DNA of 64,000 bases from Planctomycetota bacterium (lineage in GTDB: Bacteria; Planctomycetota; SZUA-567; H5-PLA8). The translations under genes were made by a program, and so were the position numbers. Below, in pieces: positions 38,012-46,003 of the stretch. The notes under the pieces were generated by a model, which searched no databases, had not been told where the DNA came from, and saw only the letters and a program-made list of their open reading frames with translations. Each line of letters opens with the position of its first letter. Position 1 is the stretch's first letter. The stretch covers positions 96,001-160,000 of the forward strand of contig JBBRPR010000002.1 of NCBI GenBank assembly GCA_038227875.1, read 5' to 3'.

Positions 38012-41000
38012 TCAGGGCTTGAAGACTTCGACCTTGTCCTGGTCTTCTTCGCTGCCGTCGAAGGAATAGAACTGCTGCTGGGTCTGTTCGAGTTCTTCCT
38101 TGGTGGGCGTGGGGATGTTGAACTTGAGTTCGCCGAGTTCGAGCTTCTCGCCGTTCTTCACGGAGAACTCCTTCAGCGGCTTGCCACCGATCAGGCTGTT
38201 GGTTCCGGTGATCGAGTTGGTGCCGAGCTGGTAGAGCTTGTAGTCGCCCGGCGGCAGGTGGTCGATGTTGAAGAGATCGAGGTGGTTGTTCTGCAGTTCC
38301 TTGGGCGGTGTGCCGATCACCACGGGTTCGAGCGTGGGCTGCTGCTGGCGGGCCTGCATGTTGTAATAAAACGTGGCCAGGATGTCGGAGCTCACGAGCA
38401 CGAAGCTCACCGGCTGGACCAGTTTGTCCCGTGGCACATCGGGCGGGAATTGCGGCACCAGCGAGACGGCGACCGAGCCGGTCGACGGGGCGATCGTAAT
38501 GGCCTTCGCCTCGAGCTTGGCGATCTGGGCGGCGTTGTCCAGCGGCTGTGAGGCGACGCTGGCGATGCTGCGCATGATCGTGACGTTGTTGCGCTGGCCG
38601 TATTCCGGATCGTAATAGTTCTCCATGTCGGAGACGAGCACGCGGTACGAGTCCTCCGGGGCAATGAACTCGATGCGGCCCGCGCCATCGACGGTGTCGT
38701 TGGGCAGGTTTTGCATCCAGAGGTCCTCAACGCGGCCGTTCTTGAAGAACGATTCGCGATAAAGATGCGCCGTTCGGCCGGCCTGCGCGGGGCCGACGTT
38801 GAGGACGATGCCCGCGTTGCGCACGAACTGGAGCTTCACGTTTGCGGGCTCTTTCTGATCCTTGGTCAGGGTCAGGCGCGTGGCCGGTTGCGTCGGGCCG
38901 CAGCCCGGCACGTCGACAGCCACGGTGTAAATGCCCGGCGGCAGGCCTGAATACGTAAATTTACCATCGGCGCCGACGCAGGCGACCATGCTGCGCCCGG
39001 CGTGGTCGTTAAGCACGACGTTGGCGTTGACCACGGTCACTCCGGCGGGAAGTTCCAGTTGCCCGCTGATCTTCAAGCCGGTGTGCAGCGTCGCAGTGAA
39101 GAGCGACTCGTCTTCGCCGGCCACGACCGTGGCGGTGGCGTCAGGGTCGGTGAAGTAGCCGTTGAGTTCGATCTGGAGTTTGCGCGGGCCATCGGCCAGG
39201 CCCTTGAAGTGGACTTCTCCCGCCGCGTTGGTGCGCTGCATGCGGTTGCCGCCCTGCCGGCCGAAGGGATTGAAATTCGCGTTGGGCGCGGTGGGCCAGA
39301 CCTGCACGCCGGCCATCGGTTTGCCGGCCTCATCGACGGTCTTCACACGGAGCTTGCCGTAGTCGCGCTTGCGCAGGTTGACGACGATCTCGTCCACCTT
39401 CAAGTCCGGCACAGTGAGATCGAGCGTTACCGGATGGTACCCGGCGAGCGCGACGCGGATGCGGTTGGGCAGGTAGCCCATGTTGTAATAGGACATGTTG
39501 AAGTCGAACTCGCCTTTTTGATTGGTGTTGATCCCGCTGGAACTGCTGCCGAAGGCGCTGACGGTTTCCAGATTGACGGTGGCTCCTTGAGCGGGCGCTC
39601 CGGTGGGGAGCAGGATCTTGCCTTTGATGTCGCCGAACGCCTTCTTGGGCGTGGGGAGTTTCAGTTCGGGCAGGTCGGTGGCCTTGCCCGCGGCAACGTC
39701 GATGCCGTAGACGACCGCCGATTCGCCGTTGCGGCCGTGCGCCGAGAGGGCGTACTTGCCCGGGCGCAGATTCTTGATTTCGAACGTTCCGTCCTGCTTA
39801 TCCTGGGCGTAATGCGAATGCATGCCCGCGGGGTCGTAGTAGTTTTGCGTGAAGACCTGGACGCCGGCGATGATCAGGTAGTTCTCTTCGATCAGCGCGA
39901 GGGAGATGTCGTGGCAGGGCTCGCCCTTCTCGTTGACGATCTTGCCTTTCAGTGTGCTACCAGCGGAGGGCTTGAGGCTCATTTCCACCGGCGCGCCGGC
40001 CTTGATCTCAATGTCGCGCAGAGAATATTCGACCGTGTTCTCCGCCGACTGATCGTTGCCGTTGCCGCGGAAGAAGATGCGGCCCTGATTCTCTGTCGTG
40101 GTGGTGCGGAGGAGAATGTGGAACTTGCCGGGCTTGAGATTCTCCAGCGTCACTTTGCCCTTTTCGTCGGTCTGTTGAAGTGCTGCGCCGTTGTCGTACA
40201 TGCGCTGCTGGTATTCGGTTTTCAGCGCGGCCCGGGCGACAACCGGGTCGTCGGAGACTGGCACGATGCTCATGTAGAAGTGCATTTTCTCGAGCGGCTT
40301 GCCGTCTTCCTTGGAGAGCGTCAGCTGCAATGAACCGCGGGACTTGGGAGTCAGCGTGGTGTCGGGGACCTGGGTGACCTGGCCTTCGTGGATGCGGACG
40401 ACGGGGCCGAGCGTCGGTTCGCAGGATTCGTGCGTCCAGACCAGACGGTAGACGCCATCGAAGACGTTTTCGAGCTTTGCGTTGCCCTTCTCGTCGGTGG
40501 ACTGGGTGAGCTCCGGGCGTCCGCCGAAGCGGTTTTGAAAGGTCGGATCGTCGATGTATTCGCCGATATCGATCACGGTGGAGAGGAGCAGTTTGGCATC
40601 CTTGAGCGGCTTGCCGGCGGCGTCGAGGGCGCGGGCTTCGCACGTGCCGCCCTGGGTGAGCTGAACGGTGATGCGGTTGGGACCGGGTACCAGGTTGAGG
40701 CGCGAAACGTATGAGAAATTGCCCACCACCGCGCACTTCTTCCAGTTGAAGTAAACGTTGTAAACGGACGGTTCGGTCTTGAGCAGGAGCTCGGTGCCGT
40801 CGGCCTTGGTGGTGACGGCCTGGGGCTGCTGGTTTCCGCCGCCCATTTCCTTGCTGAGCGTCAGGTCGGCGCCCACGCCGGGGAGCGGCTTGCCGCTCCG
40901 GTCGAGCGTGAGCAGGGTCAGCGTGGCCTGACTGAGCTTGCCGAGCAGATCGGTGGCGGCGGCTTTGATTTCCGGATCGCTGCCGTTGGCGCCTTTTTCC

Positions 41001-41254
41001 AGCGCTTCGCGGGCGGCTTCGCCGAGGTTGGCGAGATTGGTGGAGGCGGAATTGCGTTCGTCGAAGTCTTCACTGTTGAGCCTGGAGACCCATGTGGCCG
41101 CATCGCCAGCGGCAGGCGCGGTGGTCGCGGAGGGGGATTCTTCCGCGCCAGCCGAGCCAGCCATGAATGCAAACGCAATGAGCGGCCCTGCGGACAGGAG
41201 CAGTCCGCTGGACAACTGAGAGCGCAAAGACGTGTCAGACTTTCGCAAACGCAT
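38012..41254 (-). CDS. large secreted protein with HEAT-like module and multiple carboxypeptidase-regulatory-like beta-sandwich repeats
   Basis: Repeated D..GKPL..A.V / TD.KG...LENL.PG.Y motifs; signal peptide. Confidence 0.82.
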   Translation of the reverse strand: MRLRKSDTSLRSQLSSGLLLSAGPLIAFAFMAGSAGAEESPSATTAPAAGDAATWVSRLNSEDFDERNSASTNLANLGEAAREALEKGANGSDPEIKAAATDLLGKLSQATLTLLTLDRSGKPLPGVGADLTLSKEMGGGNQQPQAVTTKADGTELLLKTEPSVYNVYFNWKKCAVVGNFSYVSRLNLVPGPNRITVQLTQGGTCEARALDAAGKPLKDAKLLLSTVIDIGEYIDDPTFQNRFGGRPELTQSTDEKGNAKLENVFDGVYRLVWTHESCEPTLGPVVRIHEGQVTQVPDTTLTPKSRGSLQLTLSKEDGKPLEKMHFYMSIVPVSDDPVVARAALKTEYQQRMYDNGAALQQTDEKGKVTLENLKPGKFHILLRTTTTENQGRIFFRGNGNDQSAENTVEYSLRDIEIKAGAPVEMSLKPSAGSTLKGKIVNEKGEPCHDISLALIEENYLIIAGVQVFTQNYYDPAGMHSHYAQDKQDGTFEIKNLRPGKYALSAHGRNGESAVVYGIDVAAGKATDLPELKLPTPKKAFGDIKGKILLPTGAPAQGATVNLETVSAFGSSSSGINTNQKGEFDFNMSYYNMGYLPNRIRVALAGYHPVTLDLTVPDLKVDEIVVNLRKRDYGKLRVKTVDEAGKPMAGVQVWPTAPNANFNPFGRQGGNRMQRTNAAGEVHFKGLADGPRKLQIELNGYFTDPDATATVVAGEDESLFTATLHTGLKISGQLELPAGVTVVNANVVLNDHAGRSMVACVGADGKFTYSGLPPGIYTVAVDVPGCGPTQPATRLTLTKDQKEPANVKLQFVRNAGIVLNVGPAQAGRTAHLYRESFFKNGRVEDLWMQNLPNDTVDGAGRIEFIAPEDSYRVLVSDMENYYDPEYGQRNNVTIMRSIASVASQPLDNAAQIAKLEAKAITIAPSTGSVAVSLVPQFPPDVPRDKLVQPVSFVLVSSDILATFYYNMQARQQQPTLEPVVIGTPPKELQNNHLDLFNIDHLPPGDYKLYQLGTNSITGTNSLIGGKPLKEFSVKNGEKLELGELKFNIPTPTKEELEQTQQQFYSFDGSEEDQDKVEVFKP

Positions 41255-41344
41255 ACCGGCCGTGCCTCCAGATATGTTCCGCGTACGGTTAAGCCGGGCC
41301 CAGGATTGAACGCTGACACCATGGACGTGTCAACGCGCCGGGCA

Positions 41345-42001
41345 TTACGCTTTCGTTGACGCAGAAACAACCGGAGCCGGAGCGGCGGCAGCGACTGGCG
41401 CGACCGGAGCAGCAGCGGGAGCCGGGCGCGGAGTGGCCGCGGCCGAAGGCCCGCCACCGGTGCGTTCCGGTTTTGCCGGTTTGTCGGGCACGGCCTGTTT
41501 CGGAGCCAGGATGAGACCGACACGCTTTCCTTCGCGGAAGGGAGGGCGTTCAACCTTGGCCGAATCGGCGAGCTGCGTCACGACGTTCTTCAGGATCTGT
41601 TCACCGATCGACTGATGGGCGATTTCGCGGCCCTTGTAGATCATGGTGAACTGCACGCGGTGGCCTGCTTCCAGGAACTCCTTGGCGTGCGTGACCTTGA
41701 TGTCGAGATCGTGCTTGCCGATCTTGAAACTCAACCGTACTTCCTTGAGATCGTGGGCGTGCGCCTTCTTGCGCGCCTTCTGTTCCTTCTTCTGTTCGTG
41801 GTAGATGTGCTTGCCGTAATCCATGATGCGGCACACCGGTGGTTCGGCCGTCGGCGCGACTTCCACCAGATCCAGTTCCAGTTCTGTGGCCTTCATGCGT
41901 GCCTGGTCGGCCAGCATGATTCCCAGCTGTGCACCTTCCGGTCCGATCACGCGGACGGTCTTCGACTTGATTTCCGCGTTAATTTTCAGTCTCTCTGAAA
42001 T
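41345..42001 (-). CDS. infC: translation initiation factor IF-3 (ATT start; Pro/Ala-rich C-terminal tail)
   Basis: INAEI..VRVIG, DLVEVAP...PPVCRIMDYGK, KGREIAH; GGAGG SD 8 nt before an in-frame ATT at 42001. Confidence 0.96.
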   Translation of the reverse strand: MSERLKINAEIKSKTVRVIGPEGAQLGIMLADQARMKATELELDLVEVAPTAEPPVCRIMDYGKHIYHEQKKEQKARKKAHAHDLKEVRLSFKIGKHDLDIKVTHAKEFLEAGHRVQFTMIYKGREIAHQSIGEQILKNVVTQLADSAKVERPPFREGKRVGLILAPKQAVPDKPAKPERTGGGPSAAATPRPAPAAAPVAPVAAAAPAPVVSASTKA

Positions 42002-42085
42002 GGCCGTAGCCTCCTTGTTCCTTGAGTATCCCCCTGCGTGGCCCGGGCACATACCCGGGTTTACAACACCTGCCTGCTCCGTCGT

Positions 42086-42229
42086 TTACTGATTCTGTCC
42101 CAAGTACAGATGCGCAACGTCGACCCGGGCCTGGGTGGTGCGCATAATGCCCGCGAATTGACCATCCGGTCCAATCAGACGGACCATCGCTGTCTTGATT
42201 TCATCGTTCATCCGTAGTCGTTCAGTCAT
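42086..42229 (-). CDS. mini IF3-N-terminal-domain paralog (47 aa), absent from the ORF track
   Basis: MTERLRMNDEIKTAMVRLIGPDGQFAGIMRTTQARVDVAHLYLGQNQ; 21/43 identical to the adjacent IF3 N-terminus by manual alignment; AAGGAGGTG SD. Confidence 0.75.
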   Translation of the reverse strand: MTERLRMNDEIKTAMVRLIGPDGQFAGIMRTTQARVDVAHLYLGQNQ

Positions 42230-42291
42230 CTGCACACCTCCTTTCGTCTGTTCTTTCGTCAACGCCTTCGCTTACGCAAATCGCTCTCCCA

Positions 42292-44280
42292 TTATGTCAA
42301 TTTGCGCTCGGTAATTTCCTGTTTCGCCCGGGCGATGAATTCCGCCACCGGCATCGTGCCCAGGTCCTTCCGTCCGCGGCCGCGGACTGCGACGCTGTTG
42401 TTGGCCGCTTCGCGTTCGCCGATGACCAGCAGGTACGGGATCTTCGCGGCTTCCGACTCGGCGACCTTGGCGTTGATCTTGTAGTGGCCGAGGTCCTCTT
42501 CCACGCGCATACCGATGGCGCGCAGTTCGGCGGAAACGCGCCGGACTGCCTCTTCCTGCTTGTCGGTGATGTTCGCCACGCGCACCTGCACGGGAGACAG
42601 CCACAGCGGGAACGCGCCGGCGAAGTGTTCGATCAGGATGCCCACGAAGCGTTCGAAGCTGCCGAACGGCGCGCGGTGGATCATCACCGGACGGTGGCGC
42701 GCGTTGTCCGCGCCGACGTATTCCAGCTTGAAGCGTTCGGGCAGATTGTAATCGAGCTGAACGGTACCCAACTGCCATTCGCGGCCGATGCAGTCCTTGA
42801 CCATGAAGTCGAGCTTCGGACCGTAGAAGGCCGCTTCGCCGGGCATTTCCTCGTGCGGCAACTTCATGTCCTTGGCGACACGCTTCAAGGTTTCTTCCGC
42901 GCGGTCCCAAGTCTTCGGGTCGCCGGTGTATTTGTCGCTCTTCGGATCGCGCAAGCTGACCTGCACGCGGTAGTCGTTCAAGCCCAGCGCGGAGAAGATC
43001 GTCTGGACCAGCCCGACGGTGCTCTGGAATTCCTGCTCGACCTGCTCGGGAGTACAGAACAGATGCGCGTCGTCCTGAGTCAATCCGCGGACGCGGGTCA
43101 TGCCGTTGAGCTCACCGGACTGCTCGTAGCGGTAGACGGTCCCGAATTCCGCCAGGCGCACCGGCAGATCGCGGTAGCTGTGCTGCTCGGCCGCGTAGAT
43201 CTGAATGTGGTGCGGGCAGTTCATCGGCTTGAGCAGGTACTCTTCGTTGCCTTCGCCTTTGAGCGTCGGGTACTGGCTGTCTTTGTAGAACGGGAAGTGG
43301 CCGGAGATCTTGTACATCTCGACGTTGCCGATGTGCGGGGTGAAGACCGGCTGGTAACCGCGCTTGAAGAGCTCCGACTGCATCAGGTTCTGCAGTTCGG
43401 TGCGCATGATCGCGCCCTTGGGCATCCAGAGCACCAGGCCCTGTCCGACCAGTTGCGACATGGTGAACAGACCCATCTGCTTGCCGATCACGCGGTGGTC
43501 GCGCTTCTTGGCTTCGTCGATGCGGTCGAGGTGTTCCTTCAGGTCCTTGGCATCGTTGAAGGCGGTGCCGTAGATGCGCTGGAGCTGCTTGAGTTTCTCG
43601 TCGCCGTGGAAGTAGGCGCCGGCGACGGCAGTGAGCTTGTACGCGCCGATGCGGCCGGTGGCCGGGACGTGCGGTCCCATGCACAGGTCTTCGAAATCCT
43701 TGCCGACGTTTGAGCCGGTGACGTAGAAGGAGAGGATCTCGCCTTCCGCGCGCTGGGCGTTGTCGAGCTTGTAGGGATTGCCTTCGGCTTCGAGCTTCTT
43801 GATGCCTTCGGCGCGCGACAGTTCGTAGCGGGTCATCGGCCGGTTTTCGGCGACGATCTTGGCCATCTCTGCTTCGATCTTGGGGAAGTCGTCGACGGAG
43901 ATTTTGTAGTCGAGATCGATGTCGCCGTAGAAGCCTTCCGACGTCGGCGGACCGTAGACCAGCTTGGCTTCGGGCCAGAGGCGGATGATGGCTTCGGTCA
44001 TCACGTGTTCGGCGGTGTGGCGGATGCAGTAGAGCGCATCGGAGTCGAGCTTGCCGTCGCGGGACTTCGGAGTCACGACCGCGAACTTTCCGCTCTTGTC
44101 GAGGGGCCTGTTGAGGTCGTGGATCTGTCCGTCGATCTTGACGGCGATGGCATCGGCGGCGAGCCGTTTGCCGATCGACGCGGCGACCTGGTATCCGGTG
44201 GTTCCCGCGCTGAATTCGTGCTGCGATCCGTCGGGGTAGGTAAGAGTAATGTTGTGTGCTCCCGGGTTAATGGTGTTCAT
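42292..44280 (-). CDS. thrS: threonine--tRNA ligase
   Basis: TGS domain, DLC.GPHV, KRDHR, LKPMNCPHH, RVRGLTQDDAH, AAFYGPKLD, HRAPFGSFERF. Confidence 0.99.
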   Translation of the reverse strand: MNTINPGAHNITLTYPDGSQHEFSAGTTGYQVAASIGKRLAADAIAVKIDGQIHDLNRPLDKSGKFAVVTPKSRDGKLDSDALYCIRHTAEHVMTEAIIRLWPEAKLVYGPPTSEGFYGDIDLDYKISVDDFPKIEAEMAKIVAENRPMTRYELSRAEGIKKLEAEGNPYKLDNAQRAEGEILSFYVTGSNVGKDFEDLCMGPHVPATGRIGAYKLTAVAGAYFHGDEKLKQLQRIYGTAFNDAKDLKEHLDRIDEAKKRDHRVIGKQMGLFTMSQLVGQGLVLWMPKGAIMRTELQNLMQSELFKRGYQPVFTPHIGNVEMYKISGHFPFYKDSQYPTLKGEGNEEYLLKPMNCPHHIQIYAAEQHSYRDLPVRLAEFGTVYRYEQSGELNGMTRVRGLTQDDAHLFCTPEQVEQEFQSTVGLVQTIFSALGLNDYRVQVSLRDPKSDKYTGDPKTWDRAEETLKRVAKDMKLPHEEMPGEAAFYGPKLDFMVKDCIGREWQLGTVQLDYNLPERFKLEYVGADNARHRPVMIHRAPFGSFERFVGILIEHFAGAFPLWLSPVQVRVANITDKQEEAVRRVSAELRAIGMRVEEDLGHYKINAKVAESEAAKIPYLLVIGEREAANNSVAVRGRGRKDLGTMPVAEFIARAKQEITERKLT

Positions 44281-44314
44281 TTTGAGCGCTCGCTTAAGAG
44301 TGTGCGACCTGCGG

Positions 44315-44339
44315 AAAAAGCAGACTCACAAGAGTCCGC
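44315..44339 (-). terminator. terminator-like hairpin in the thrS leader
   Basis: Minus strand GCGGACTC-TTGT-GAGTCTGC-TTTTT, about 35 nt upstream of the thrS ATG. Confidence 0.55.
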
Positions 44340-44491
44340 GTTGGCCGACACGCGTCGCGCGGCTTGAGCGATTCCATGCCGGAGGGCTTGCAGAGCAAAA
44401 CGCGAACGCGTAGTGCCACAGGCAGCCGCCCGGACCCACAGGCTTGATACGACTGGCGCAGAAGCGCTTGCAGGGGGAATACGAACGATCA

Positions 44492-44575
44492 TCAAGAGTC
44501 GAGACGCGTCAGTACCGTGAGAACCACGGCGGCGCTTCTCGTCGACCGCCTGGCTGGTGAAGCCAGGCGTGTCAT
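44492..44575 (-). CDS. putative 27-aa leader peptide upstream of thrS
   Basis: MTRLASPARRSTRSAAVVLTVLTRLDS*, 4 Thr codons, AAGGA upstream (close spacing); overlaps strong hairpins. Confidence 0.35.
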   Translation of the reverse strand: MTRLASPARRSTRSAAVVLTVLTRLDS

Positions 44576-45009
44576 ATCCTTAGTGAAGTAAAAAGAGTGG
44601 CGCATTCAGTCAAACTTTCCGAACCTTGGATTACGAAACGTTCACCTCATAAAGATAACTCGCGGCGGAAGGGTGTGCAACCGAATTCCTAACAAAGTGC
44701 ACCTGCGGGAATGTCGAAAAGTGAATGTCGAATGTCGAAGAATGTGGGCGGCGCTCGCAGGTGTAACATTCGAGCTGGATTGCACGGGGTGAGGTACCAC
44801 ACGGTTTCATAGGTGAATGTTACCAAATGTGACAGAATGTTACGCGGACCGGGAGTGGGGCTGTTTTCCGGTACAACAGCGCGGGTGTACGGCGCGGACC
44901 CTCCGGCCGAGATGCCCGGTCTATTTATGACCGGGCACTTCTGGCCTGGCGCGTCGTTGCGCTCGGGGTCCGCTGGAGGCGTATGAGGTTGTCAAAGAGC
45001 GGGAACAGA

Positions 45010-45277: not shown

Positions 45278-46003
45278 GGTTCATGCTGTTGCCGTTGCTG
45301 TTCACGCTGTTGCTTGGGAGCTCGGCGAGGGCTGGGGTGTGGCATTAGATGGCCTGATCACTGGAAAGGCGGCGAGGGTTGCGCGGAAATCGGGCGCCCT
45401 TTCAGGGCGCGGGGCATCGAGTCGAACCGAGGGCTGCCGCCCTCGGCTATTGACGGGCGGCCTTCCAGGCCGTGGGGCTTCGCGCGATCGGTGGCGACTC
45501 GGACGGGCGGGCTTTGTTTGCGAGGTCGGCACTGGTGGCTATACAGCCAGCCACCAGTGGCACACAACTGCAGGCGAAATTGCAAACGAGGCGCGTCTCT
45601 CGCCTGTTCGAAAAGCTCAGGGCAGGCACCCTGACTTGTGAATGGGAGCAAGTGGGCGCGGGGCGTGGGTGCTCCGGGGGATGGGGTGTTCACGGGGATG
45701 GCTCCTGGCGGACGGGACTTGAGTGTTGCAGATGATAAAAGACTGGGGGGTTCGGGCGTTGGTGCGGGATAGTGGATTTCCTTTATATATCTATGCGCTT
45801 GAGAAATGAAAAAGTCAAGTAATATCTTGAAACTTCGTATATAAAAGTTAAGTATTTTTATATTTATAGTGAGTTATGAGTTTCAGTTCGCATGGGGCAG
45901 TATTCGGTTTCCGTTGGCCGGGGACGCGCGATGAAGCTTCGTCGTGTGAAAAGTGTCCTTATATAAAGCAACTCTCGACACTGAAAATCAAGGGAAATCT
46001 GGC

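Follow-up and report, generated by a model that had tools for sequence, protein, structure and literature searches.

Why does a short, ATG-initiated open reading frame that resembles the beginning of translation initiation factor 3 (IF3) lie between thrS and infC, the IF3 gene itself, in a genome of the Planctomycetota, and does it take part in the control of infC? The infC gene is the textbook case of a gene controlled through a weak start codon: in the E. coli thrS–infC–rpmI–rplT cluster, IF3 autoregulates infC through its AUU start. An upstream ORF with a canonical start, built from infC's own first codons, would be a simple and natural route by which to bypass or retune this feedback, and would clearly illustrate how a small gene can be born from part of an essential one. 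In S. aureus, infC has a non-canonical AUA start and a predicted extended Shine–Dalgarno sequence, according to a preprint (10.1101/2025.06.19.660503). Our literature searches turned up no account of an ORF derived from IF3 ahead of infC.

Organization of the thrS–infC locus

The locus lies in a window of 64,000 nucleotides (the whole stretch of DNA that was analysed), and all features considered here are on its minus strand:

42292..44280, minus strand: thrS, threonyl-tRNA synthetase, 662 aa (ORF list); stop TAA at 42294–42292; Pfam TGS, tRNA_SAD, tRNA-synt_2b and HGTP_anticodon
42291..42002, minus strand: thrS–infC spacer, 290 nt
42078..42272, minus strand: 195-bp cassette, skipped in a near relative (contig of run X2)
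42235..42243, minus strand: Shine–Dalgarno sequence of the mini-ORF, AAGGAGGTG, from reading of the sequence; infC-like DNA homology begins at AAGGAGG
42086..42229, minus strand: mini-ORF, 47 codons plus TAA, for an IF3-N-derived peptide limited to strands 1 and 2 and helix 1
42042..42059, minus strand: GC-rich hairpin CCCGGGU/GCCCGGG (RNAfold) within the native leader of infC, on the downstream side of the cassette
42010..42016, minus strand: infC Shine–Dalgarno sequence AAGGAGG, within the conserved box ACTCAAGGAAnAAGGAGG
41345..42001, minus strand: infC, IF3 of 218 aa from ATT at 42001–41999; Pfam IF3_N 99 bits, IF3_C 97.9 bits; TIGR00168 188 bits

Direct reading of the sequence bears out the original prediction of a 47-codon ATG ORF with a strong Shine–Dalgarno sequence between thrS and infC, for which no strand had been given. 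The mini-ORF runs from ATG at 42229–42227 to TAA at 42088–42086, with 5 nt separating AAGGAGGTG from the ATG. Its ATG lies 228 nt upstream of the infC ATT, and 84 nt separate its stop from the ATT. The 195-bp cassette that contains it begins with 43 nt of leader, including the ribosome-binding site, continues with the ORF (47 codons and stop) and closes with a further 8 nt. As in E. coli, infC directly follows thrS and has an ATT start behind an extended ribosome-binding site; the E. coli system differs in having no IF3-derived upstream AUG ORF and in that rpmI and rplT follow infC, whereas here the gene downstream of infC (38012–41254, minus strand) encodes a 1080-aa protein rich in CarboxypepD_reg-like domains. 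The IF3 itself ends in an Ala/Pro-rich tail of about 45 residues past the IF3_C domain (41345–41500, minus strand), the sequence of which varies among relatives.

The infC start codon and leader

An in-frame ATG at 42052–42050 (minus strand) opens a 235-aa ORF that gene callers would choose as infC. This ATG has no ribosome-binding site, lies inside the hairpin loop and is 51 nt upstream of the ATT, which itself is preceded by AAGGAGG at a distance of 8 nt. Of 14 family loci, 12 have ATT or ATC at the corresponding codon, again preceded by A/GGAGG, and ATT is found there in both of two closer metagenome loci (L029 and L030). The ATT initiation of infC that had been proposed from the sequence is thus upheld by conservation, and the mini-ORF adds to it by beginning at exactly the homologous codon. 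Taken together, the sequence comparisons favour ATT, rather than the ATG at 42052, as the infC start.

A GC-rich hairpin is also found upstream of the binding site in most of the 13 other leaders folded; the stem sequences differ, and the hairpins lie before the conserved box ACTCAAGGAAnAAGGAGG. The hairpin at 42042–42059 may be the thrS terminator or another element of the infC leader. Rfam searches at E ≤ 1 over 40800–44600 returned no family, including the L20-leader types, and folding of the spacer RNA gave no signal (z −0.28; 39 of 100 shuffled sequences folded equally well or better). The promoter and terminator scan gave no minus-strand site in 41200–42600.

Relationship of the mini-ORF to the 5′ end of infC

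The mini-ORF peptide aligns without gaps to the neighbouring IF3 (BLASTP, 21 of 41 residues identical, E 1e-11), and 21 residues are identical over the 43 codons that can be aligned. The likeness claimed in the original prediction, gapless over the first 43 residues of IF3 with 21 identities, is therefore reproduced, as is its end just before the DLVEV segment: it stops at codon 43, ahead of the DLVE strand. Searches of the whole 9.3-Mb genome with the mini-ORF and infC copies recover one another at E 1.1e-6 and 2.5e-4. At the DNA level, homology to infC extends from AAGGAGG to approximately codon 35, and the leaders further upstream are unrelated. These alignments support the mini-ORF being a copy of the infC 5′ end that comprises the ribosome-binding site and 43 codons. 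The mini-ORF begins with a canonical ATG and infC keeps ATT.

The amino-acid identity of the mini-ORF to 14 IF3 N-termini (13 from relatives and that of its own infC) is 40–51%, placing it at about equal distance from all of them. At T2 and R6 it agrees with the family consensus and not with its own infC. Two further ideas on its history were set aside. Adenine-specific changes, of the kind made by diversity-generating retroelements, were rejected on the codon table, where the differences between infC and the mini-ORF are not confined to adenines. Third-position GC content was likewise rejected as a sign of foreign origin, being 0.62 in the mini-ORF against 0.64 in the first 47 codons of infC (hand count) and 0.85 in thrS.

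Distribution among relatives

A profile built from 21 N-terminal 47-residue IF3 fragments was searched against 62 genomes of the class. Only the present genome gave two matches; 58 others gave a single one, and three, all incomplete, gave nothing. All 17 family genomes were searched, and a second IF3-N match was again seen only here. With the mini-ORF peptide as query, the sole strong match in a relative (E below 1e-3), where there was any, fell in an open frame of IF3 size or larger, and a second strong match was seen in the present genome alone. Everything else had an E of at least 0.8 and, in the relatives, lay on other contigs. Both the class counts and the peptide-query counts include an unpublished genome (G017). 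A permissive tblastn (E ≤ 50) of the loci of 19 relatives gave no second copy near infC. Weak matches to residues 23–47 of the peptide some 900–1000 nt upstream of infC in five relatives were read as chance, since a similar short motif occurs in the ThrRS translations of this window and of L029. Neither of the two closer metagenome loci, L029 and L030, whose IF3 is 87–88% identical, has a mini-ORF.

Broader searches gave a similar result. Among 5.8 billion proteins of 25–83 aa there was no relative beyond the peptide's own cluster, and among longer proteins sharing sequence words with it no candidate scored. A search of 1.84 billion representatives returned only the peptide itself and two repeat proteins (P0002 and P0003), which were rejected as spurious. 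A search of 185,579 species genomes yielded just two loci, both betaproteobacterial and 45% identical, and a scan of genome contigs with IF3 as query found nothing. A Pfam IF3_N search of 401 genomes of the phylum (E ≤ 0.001) missed the mini-ORF even in the present genome and so is uninformative on fragments of this kind. In that sample, five genomes (G043, G056, G099, G255 and G348) have two IF3_N matches above threshold, which could represent IF3 paralogues or contamination.

The spacer itself is variable. Among relatives, the thrS–infC gaps measure 67, 67, 68, 84, 98, 128, 208, 415, 677 and 1036 nt; the nine loci with thrS as the upstream ORF span 67–1036 nt. Two loci (L002 and L029, in the latter at 1975–2441) hold a hicAB-like pair in the spacer and a third (L006) a hicB-like ORF, these names having been assigned by reading the translations and not by family search. 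L029, one of the two closer metagenome loci, is thus among those with such a pair, and in L030 the upstream gene is a different one. On these comparisons, the thrS–infC spacer is evidently a hot spot of insertion and deletion in the family.

Alleles with and without the cassette

Contigs of four public runs were compared with 41345–42700. A 768-nt contig from run X2, which belongs to a different study, matches 41830–42077 with 11 other letters and 42273–42700 with 30, so that its flanks differ at 11 of 248 and 30 of 428 letters (about 93–96% identical). It passes from 42077 straight to 42273 without intervening letters, skipping exactly the 195 bp from 42078 to 42272, and the joint has 1 nt of microhomology. 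The resulting spacer of 95 nt falls within the 67–128 nt range of the short family spacers. The evidence of absence consists of this joint only, the uncovered parts of the cassette in runs X2, X3 and X7 being no such evidence.

The cassette also occurs elsewhere. A second allele (P0004), from another assembly and in the 90% cluster of the peptide, is intact at 47 aa with three substitutions (V16I, R30H and T32A). The cassette is present in part in runs X4 and X7. A 151-nt contig of run X4, from another study and at depth 2, matches 42188–42282 with one difference; 38 other letters then replace 74, and matching resumes from 42113 downward. Read by hand from this one low-depth record, the X4 allele would tentatively have lost a net 36 nt in frame, and with them the conserved hairpin motif. 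The existence of the cassette is thereby confirmed, in at least two intact alleles, and one near relative lacks it. No other copy was found in its own genome, and features of a mobile cassette (MITE- or IS-like) were not seen: inspection of its ends showed no terminal inverted repeats, and there were no target-site duplications.

Absence or frameshifts in close relatives had been named in advance as marks of a non-functional relic. The former was found: the mini-ORF is lacking from the 61 other genomes of the class, from L029 and L030 and from the X2 contig. The latter was not: the two full alleles are intact, and the possible third keeps the frame.

Divergence and constraint

Identities between the mini-ORF and infC number 26, 33 and 19 of 43 at the first, second and third codon positions. 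By the NG86 method, dN is 0.44 and dS 1.15 (saturated), a ratio of 0.38. Strong purifying selection acts on infC, whose dN to its orthologues is 0.07–0.31; that of the mini-ORF to IF3s is 0.40–0.62. By our reckoning a copy drifting neutrally beside a constrained infC would give a ratio of about 0.55. With 31 synonymous sites, the observed ratio does not reject neutrality. In simulations with 51 random changes, 14.2 ± 2.2 residues remained identical, and 21 or more did so at P 0.0016. When 30 random changes were placed on the copy and all others were silent changes in infC, 23.8 ± 2.0 remained identical, against 21 observed. The simulated probability of meeting no stop codon was 0.26–0.40, the value of 0.40 being obtained with 30 changes on the copy.

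The peptide scores poorly as an IF3 N-terminus. Pfam IF3_N gave 24.5 bits against a cut-off of 26.9 and covered only profile positions 1–28 of 70, whereas 20 genuine 47-aa IF3 N-termini from the class scored 37.6–60.9 bits, 19 of them over positions 1 or 2 to 41 and one over 2–40. There was no IF3_C match, and the TIGR00168 score of 20 bits fell short of its cut-off of 60. Among the 16 IF3 columns that are invariant or nearly so, nine are kept (N8, E10, I11, R17, I19, G23, G27, A34 and L43) and seven are changed (Q25, K37, A38 and D44–E47). Judged by these scores and columns, the peptide is apparently no longer under IF3-type constraint.

The signals for translation have fared differently. The 129 coding nt hold 51 substitutions and no indel, the one indel lying in the 7–8 nt between ribosome-binding site and start. 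All seven bases of AAGGAGG are kept, though the surrounding DNA is 40% diverged. The AAGGAGG, the ATG, the indel-free frame and the equal length of the alleles look maintained.

Predicted structure of the peptide

An AF2 model, built with an alignment of IF3 N-termini, has strands at residues 15–19 and 25–30 and a helix at 31–46, with a mean pLDDT of 72. It superposes on the IF3-N structures 1tif, 6o6d and 5lmn_X at 2.2–3.1 Å over 31–34 columns. The Foldseek E-values for these structures (0.5–2.3) fall short of significance, and the model is not independent of the IF3 alignment supplied to it. A phmmer search with the peptide reached T. thermophilus IF3 at E 0.005. The peptide has no counterpart to strands 3 and 4 of the IF3 N-domain.

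Origin and possible function of the mini-ORF

With roughly even confidence, we propose that the mini-ORF arose when part of infC, its initiation region, was duplicated, and the ribosome-binding site and the first 43 codons were copied into the thrS–infC spacer. This event would have taken place within the genus-level lineage and be about as old as the split from the sister genera, and the cassette would later have been deleted in at least one close relative. The copy retained a strong ribosome-binding site and now has an ATG, so that translation into a 47-residue peptide is probable. The product would amount to less than half of the IF3 N-domain and would have drifted from IF3 constraints, and any influence on infC would be an incidental effect in cis, for example through ribosomes loaded and then released 84 nt upstream of the AUU. 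That the mini-ORF is at present a dispensable, possibly translated relic of such a duplication is an evenly balanced judgement; dispensability is suggested by the very close relative that has the same spacer without it. In common with gene remnants and pseudogene fragments, it shows homology to part of an adjacent gene, truncation, degenerate conserved positions, a lineage-specific and variable presence, and relaxed constraint relative to its parent. It differs from them in its intact frame, start codon and ribosome-binding site and in having two alleles of the same length, which is unusual for decay; the in-frame X4 allele, if correctly read, points the same way. Bacterial pseudogene fragments are usually deleted quickly, and a neutral relic that has outlasted about 0.5 synonymous divergence per branch is thus uncomfortable. 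With neither a donor nor an intermediate form found, the origin within the lineage is something that we infer.

These same intact signals are what would be expected if the mini-ORF were a selected, cis-acting upstream ORF, AUG-started and insensitive to IF3, that loads ribosomes on the thrS–infC transcript. Termination and re-initiation, or unfolding of the leader, would then adjust use of the weak AUU and form a second input to IF3 autoregulation. The strong ribosome-binding site, the ATG and a frame intact in two alleles, and possibly in frame in a third, are in keeping with this, as is the position of the cassette between the thrS stop and the leader hairpin, which would have it transcribed together with the thrS 3′ end and the infC leader. 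By analogy, a eukaryotic precedent might be seen in the eIF5 gene, in which, according to one report (PMC3326321), start-codon stringency is coupled to upstream ORFs. The 84 nt from stop to ATT are long for coupling, however; RNA folding gave no significant structure connecting stop and start (z −0.28, no Rfam match); and absence from 61 other genomes of the class and from the near-identical relative indicates that the mini-ORF is not needed for control of infC. Bacterial regulatory upstream ORFs and leader peptides are likewise short ORFs with their own ribosome-binding site, on the same strand and ahead of a translationally regulated gene, but the mini-ORF departs from them in its lack of conservation in relatives, its distance of 84 nt from the start, the absence of an alternative-structure signal and the derivation of its sequence from the main gene. 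We consider selection for such a role in cis unlikely. A little less probable still is a broader version, in which the cassette is a strain-variable accessory mini-gene, AUG-started, IF3-insensitive and born from infC's own start, that selection keeps open because it feeds the AUU start or makes a half-domain peptide; if it were true, ribosomes fed to the AUU start would shift the set-point of IF3 autoregulation, or the peptide would interfere with IF3-N contacts. Action of the 47-residue peptide in trans is very improbable. Such a peptide would bind the 30S subunit, the elbow of the initiator tRNA or IF3 and modulate start fidelity while escaping the AUU feedback, a role with which the nine retained residues and the modelled hairpin and helix (pLDDT 72, superposing on IF3-N structures) would agree. 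The IF3 C-domain carries most IF3 activities, and the peptide is without that entire domain as well as strands 3 and 4; it has lost Q25, K37 and A38; its predicted fold draws on the supplied alignment, with Foldseek support that is not significant (E 0.5–2.3); the possible X4 allele would lose the conserved hairpin motif; and the near relative dispenses with the peptide altogether. The proposal of a decoy, modulator or tuning upstream ORF thus gained nothing from the comparison, given absence in relatives, the low IF3_N score and a divergence that fits neutral drift. The decayed duplication that the original prediction offered as its alternative fits these three observations better, except that the frame is not broken.

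The source of the fragment can also be sought outside the lineage. Recent recombination into the spacer of the 5′ end of a distant, foreign infC, or of a piece of a divergent IF3 paralogue, would mean that the divergence pattern reflects divergence between orthologues and not history at this site. It would account for the near-equal distance to all compared IF3 N-termini (40–51%), for T2 and R6 matching the family consensus and not the resident infC, and for absence from a relative with flanks about 93–96% identical when the mini-ORF is 40% diverged from infC; the spacer does take up foreign genes, such as the hicAB-like pairs. We nevertheless regard import as quite unlikely: no donor emerged from the longer proteins, from the 185,579 species genomes (only the loci at 45%) or from the 1.84 billion representatives; a freshly acquired, genuine IF3 N-terminus should score 38–61 bits and not 24.5; and there are no target-site duplications or terminal repeats, with only 1 nt of microhomology at the joint. 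That the start of a second organism's infC was stitched into the spacer during assembly or binning is barely conceivable, even in a genome assembled as 176 contigs at 88% completeness, when Logan contigs of run X1 contain 0.97 of the sampled words, the X4 contig, obtained in another study, crosses the left junction from 42282 in the spacer to 42188 in the 5′ part of the ORF with one difference, and a separate ENA assembly encodes a 47-aa allele. Returning to the duplication of infC's own start, the element is real but young in its distribution, degenerate and dispensable. We would therefore class it as a passing stage in the turnover of gene fragments within a hyper-variable spacer, and less readily as a novel system of regulation. 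Alleles that have the cassette, lack it or, possibly, have it shortened in frame coexist, and together with expression data they would form a usable natural experiment.

Other features of the neighbourhood

A Pfam scan of 19 neighbouring ORFs of the window gave matches in 10, with no phage-related family among them. Two stretches in a collection of viral contigs encode a relative of the 58-aa extended ORF, and both derive from the same or a very near genome. Upstream of thrS lies a region of about 1.8 kb in which no gene passes the ORF filter, and within it an Acido-Lenti-1 RNA motif (RF01687) was detected at 45427–45472 on the plus strand, with 44.9 bits against a gathering score of 37.
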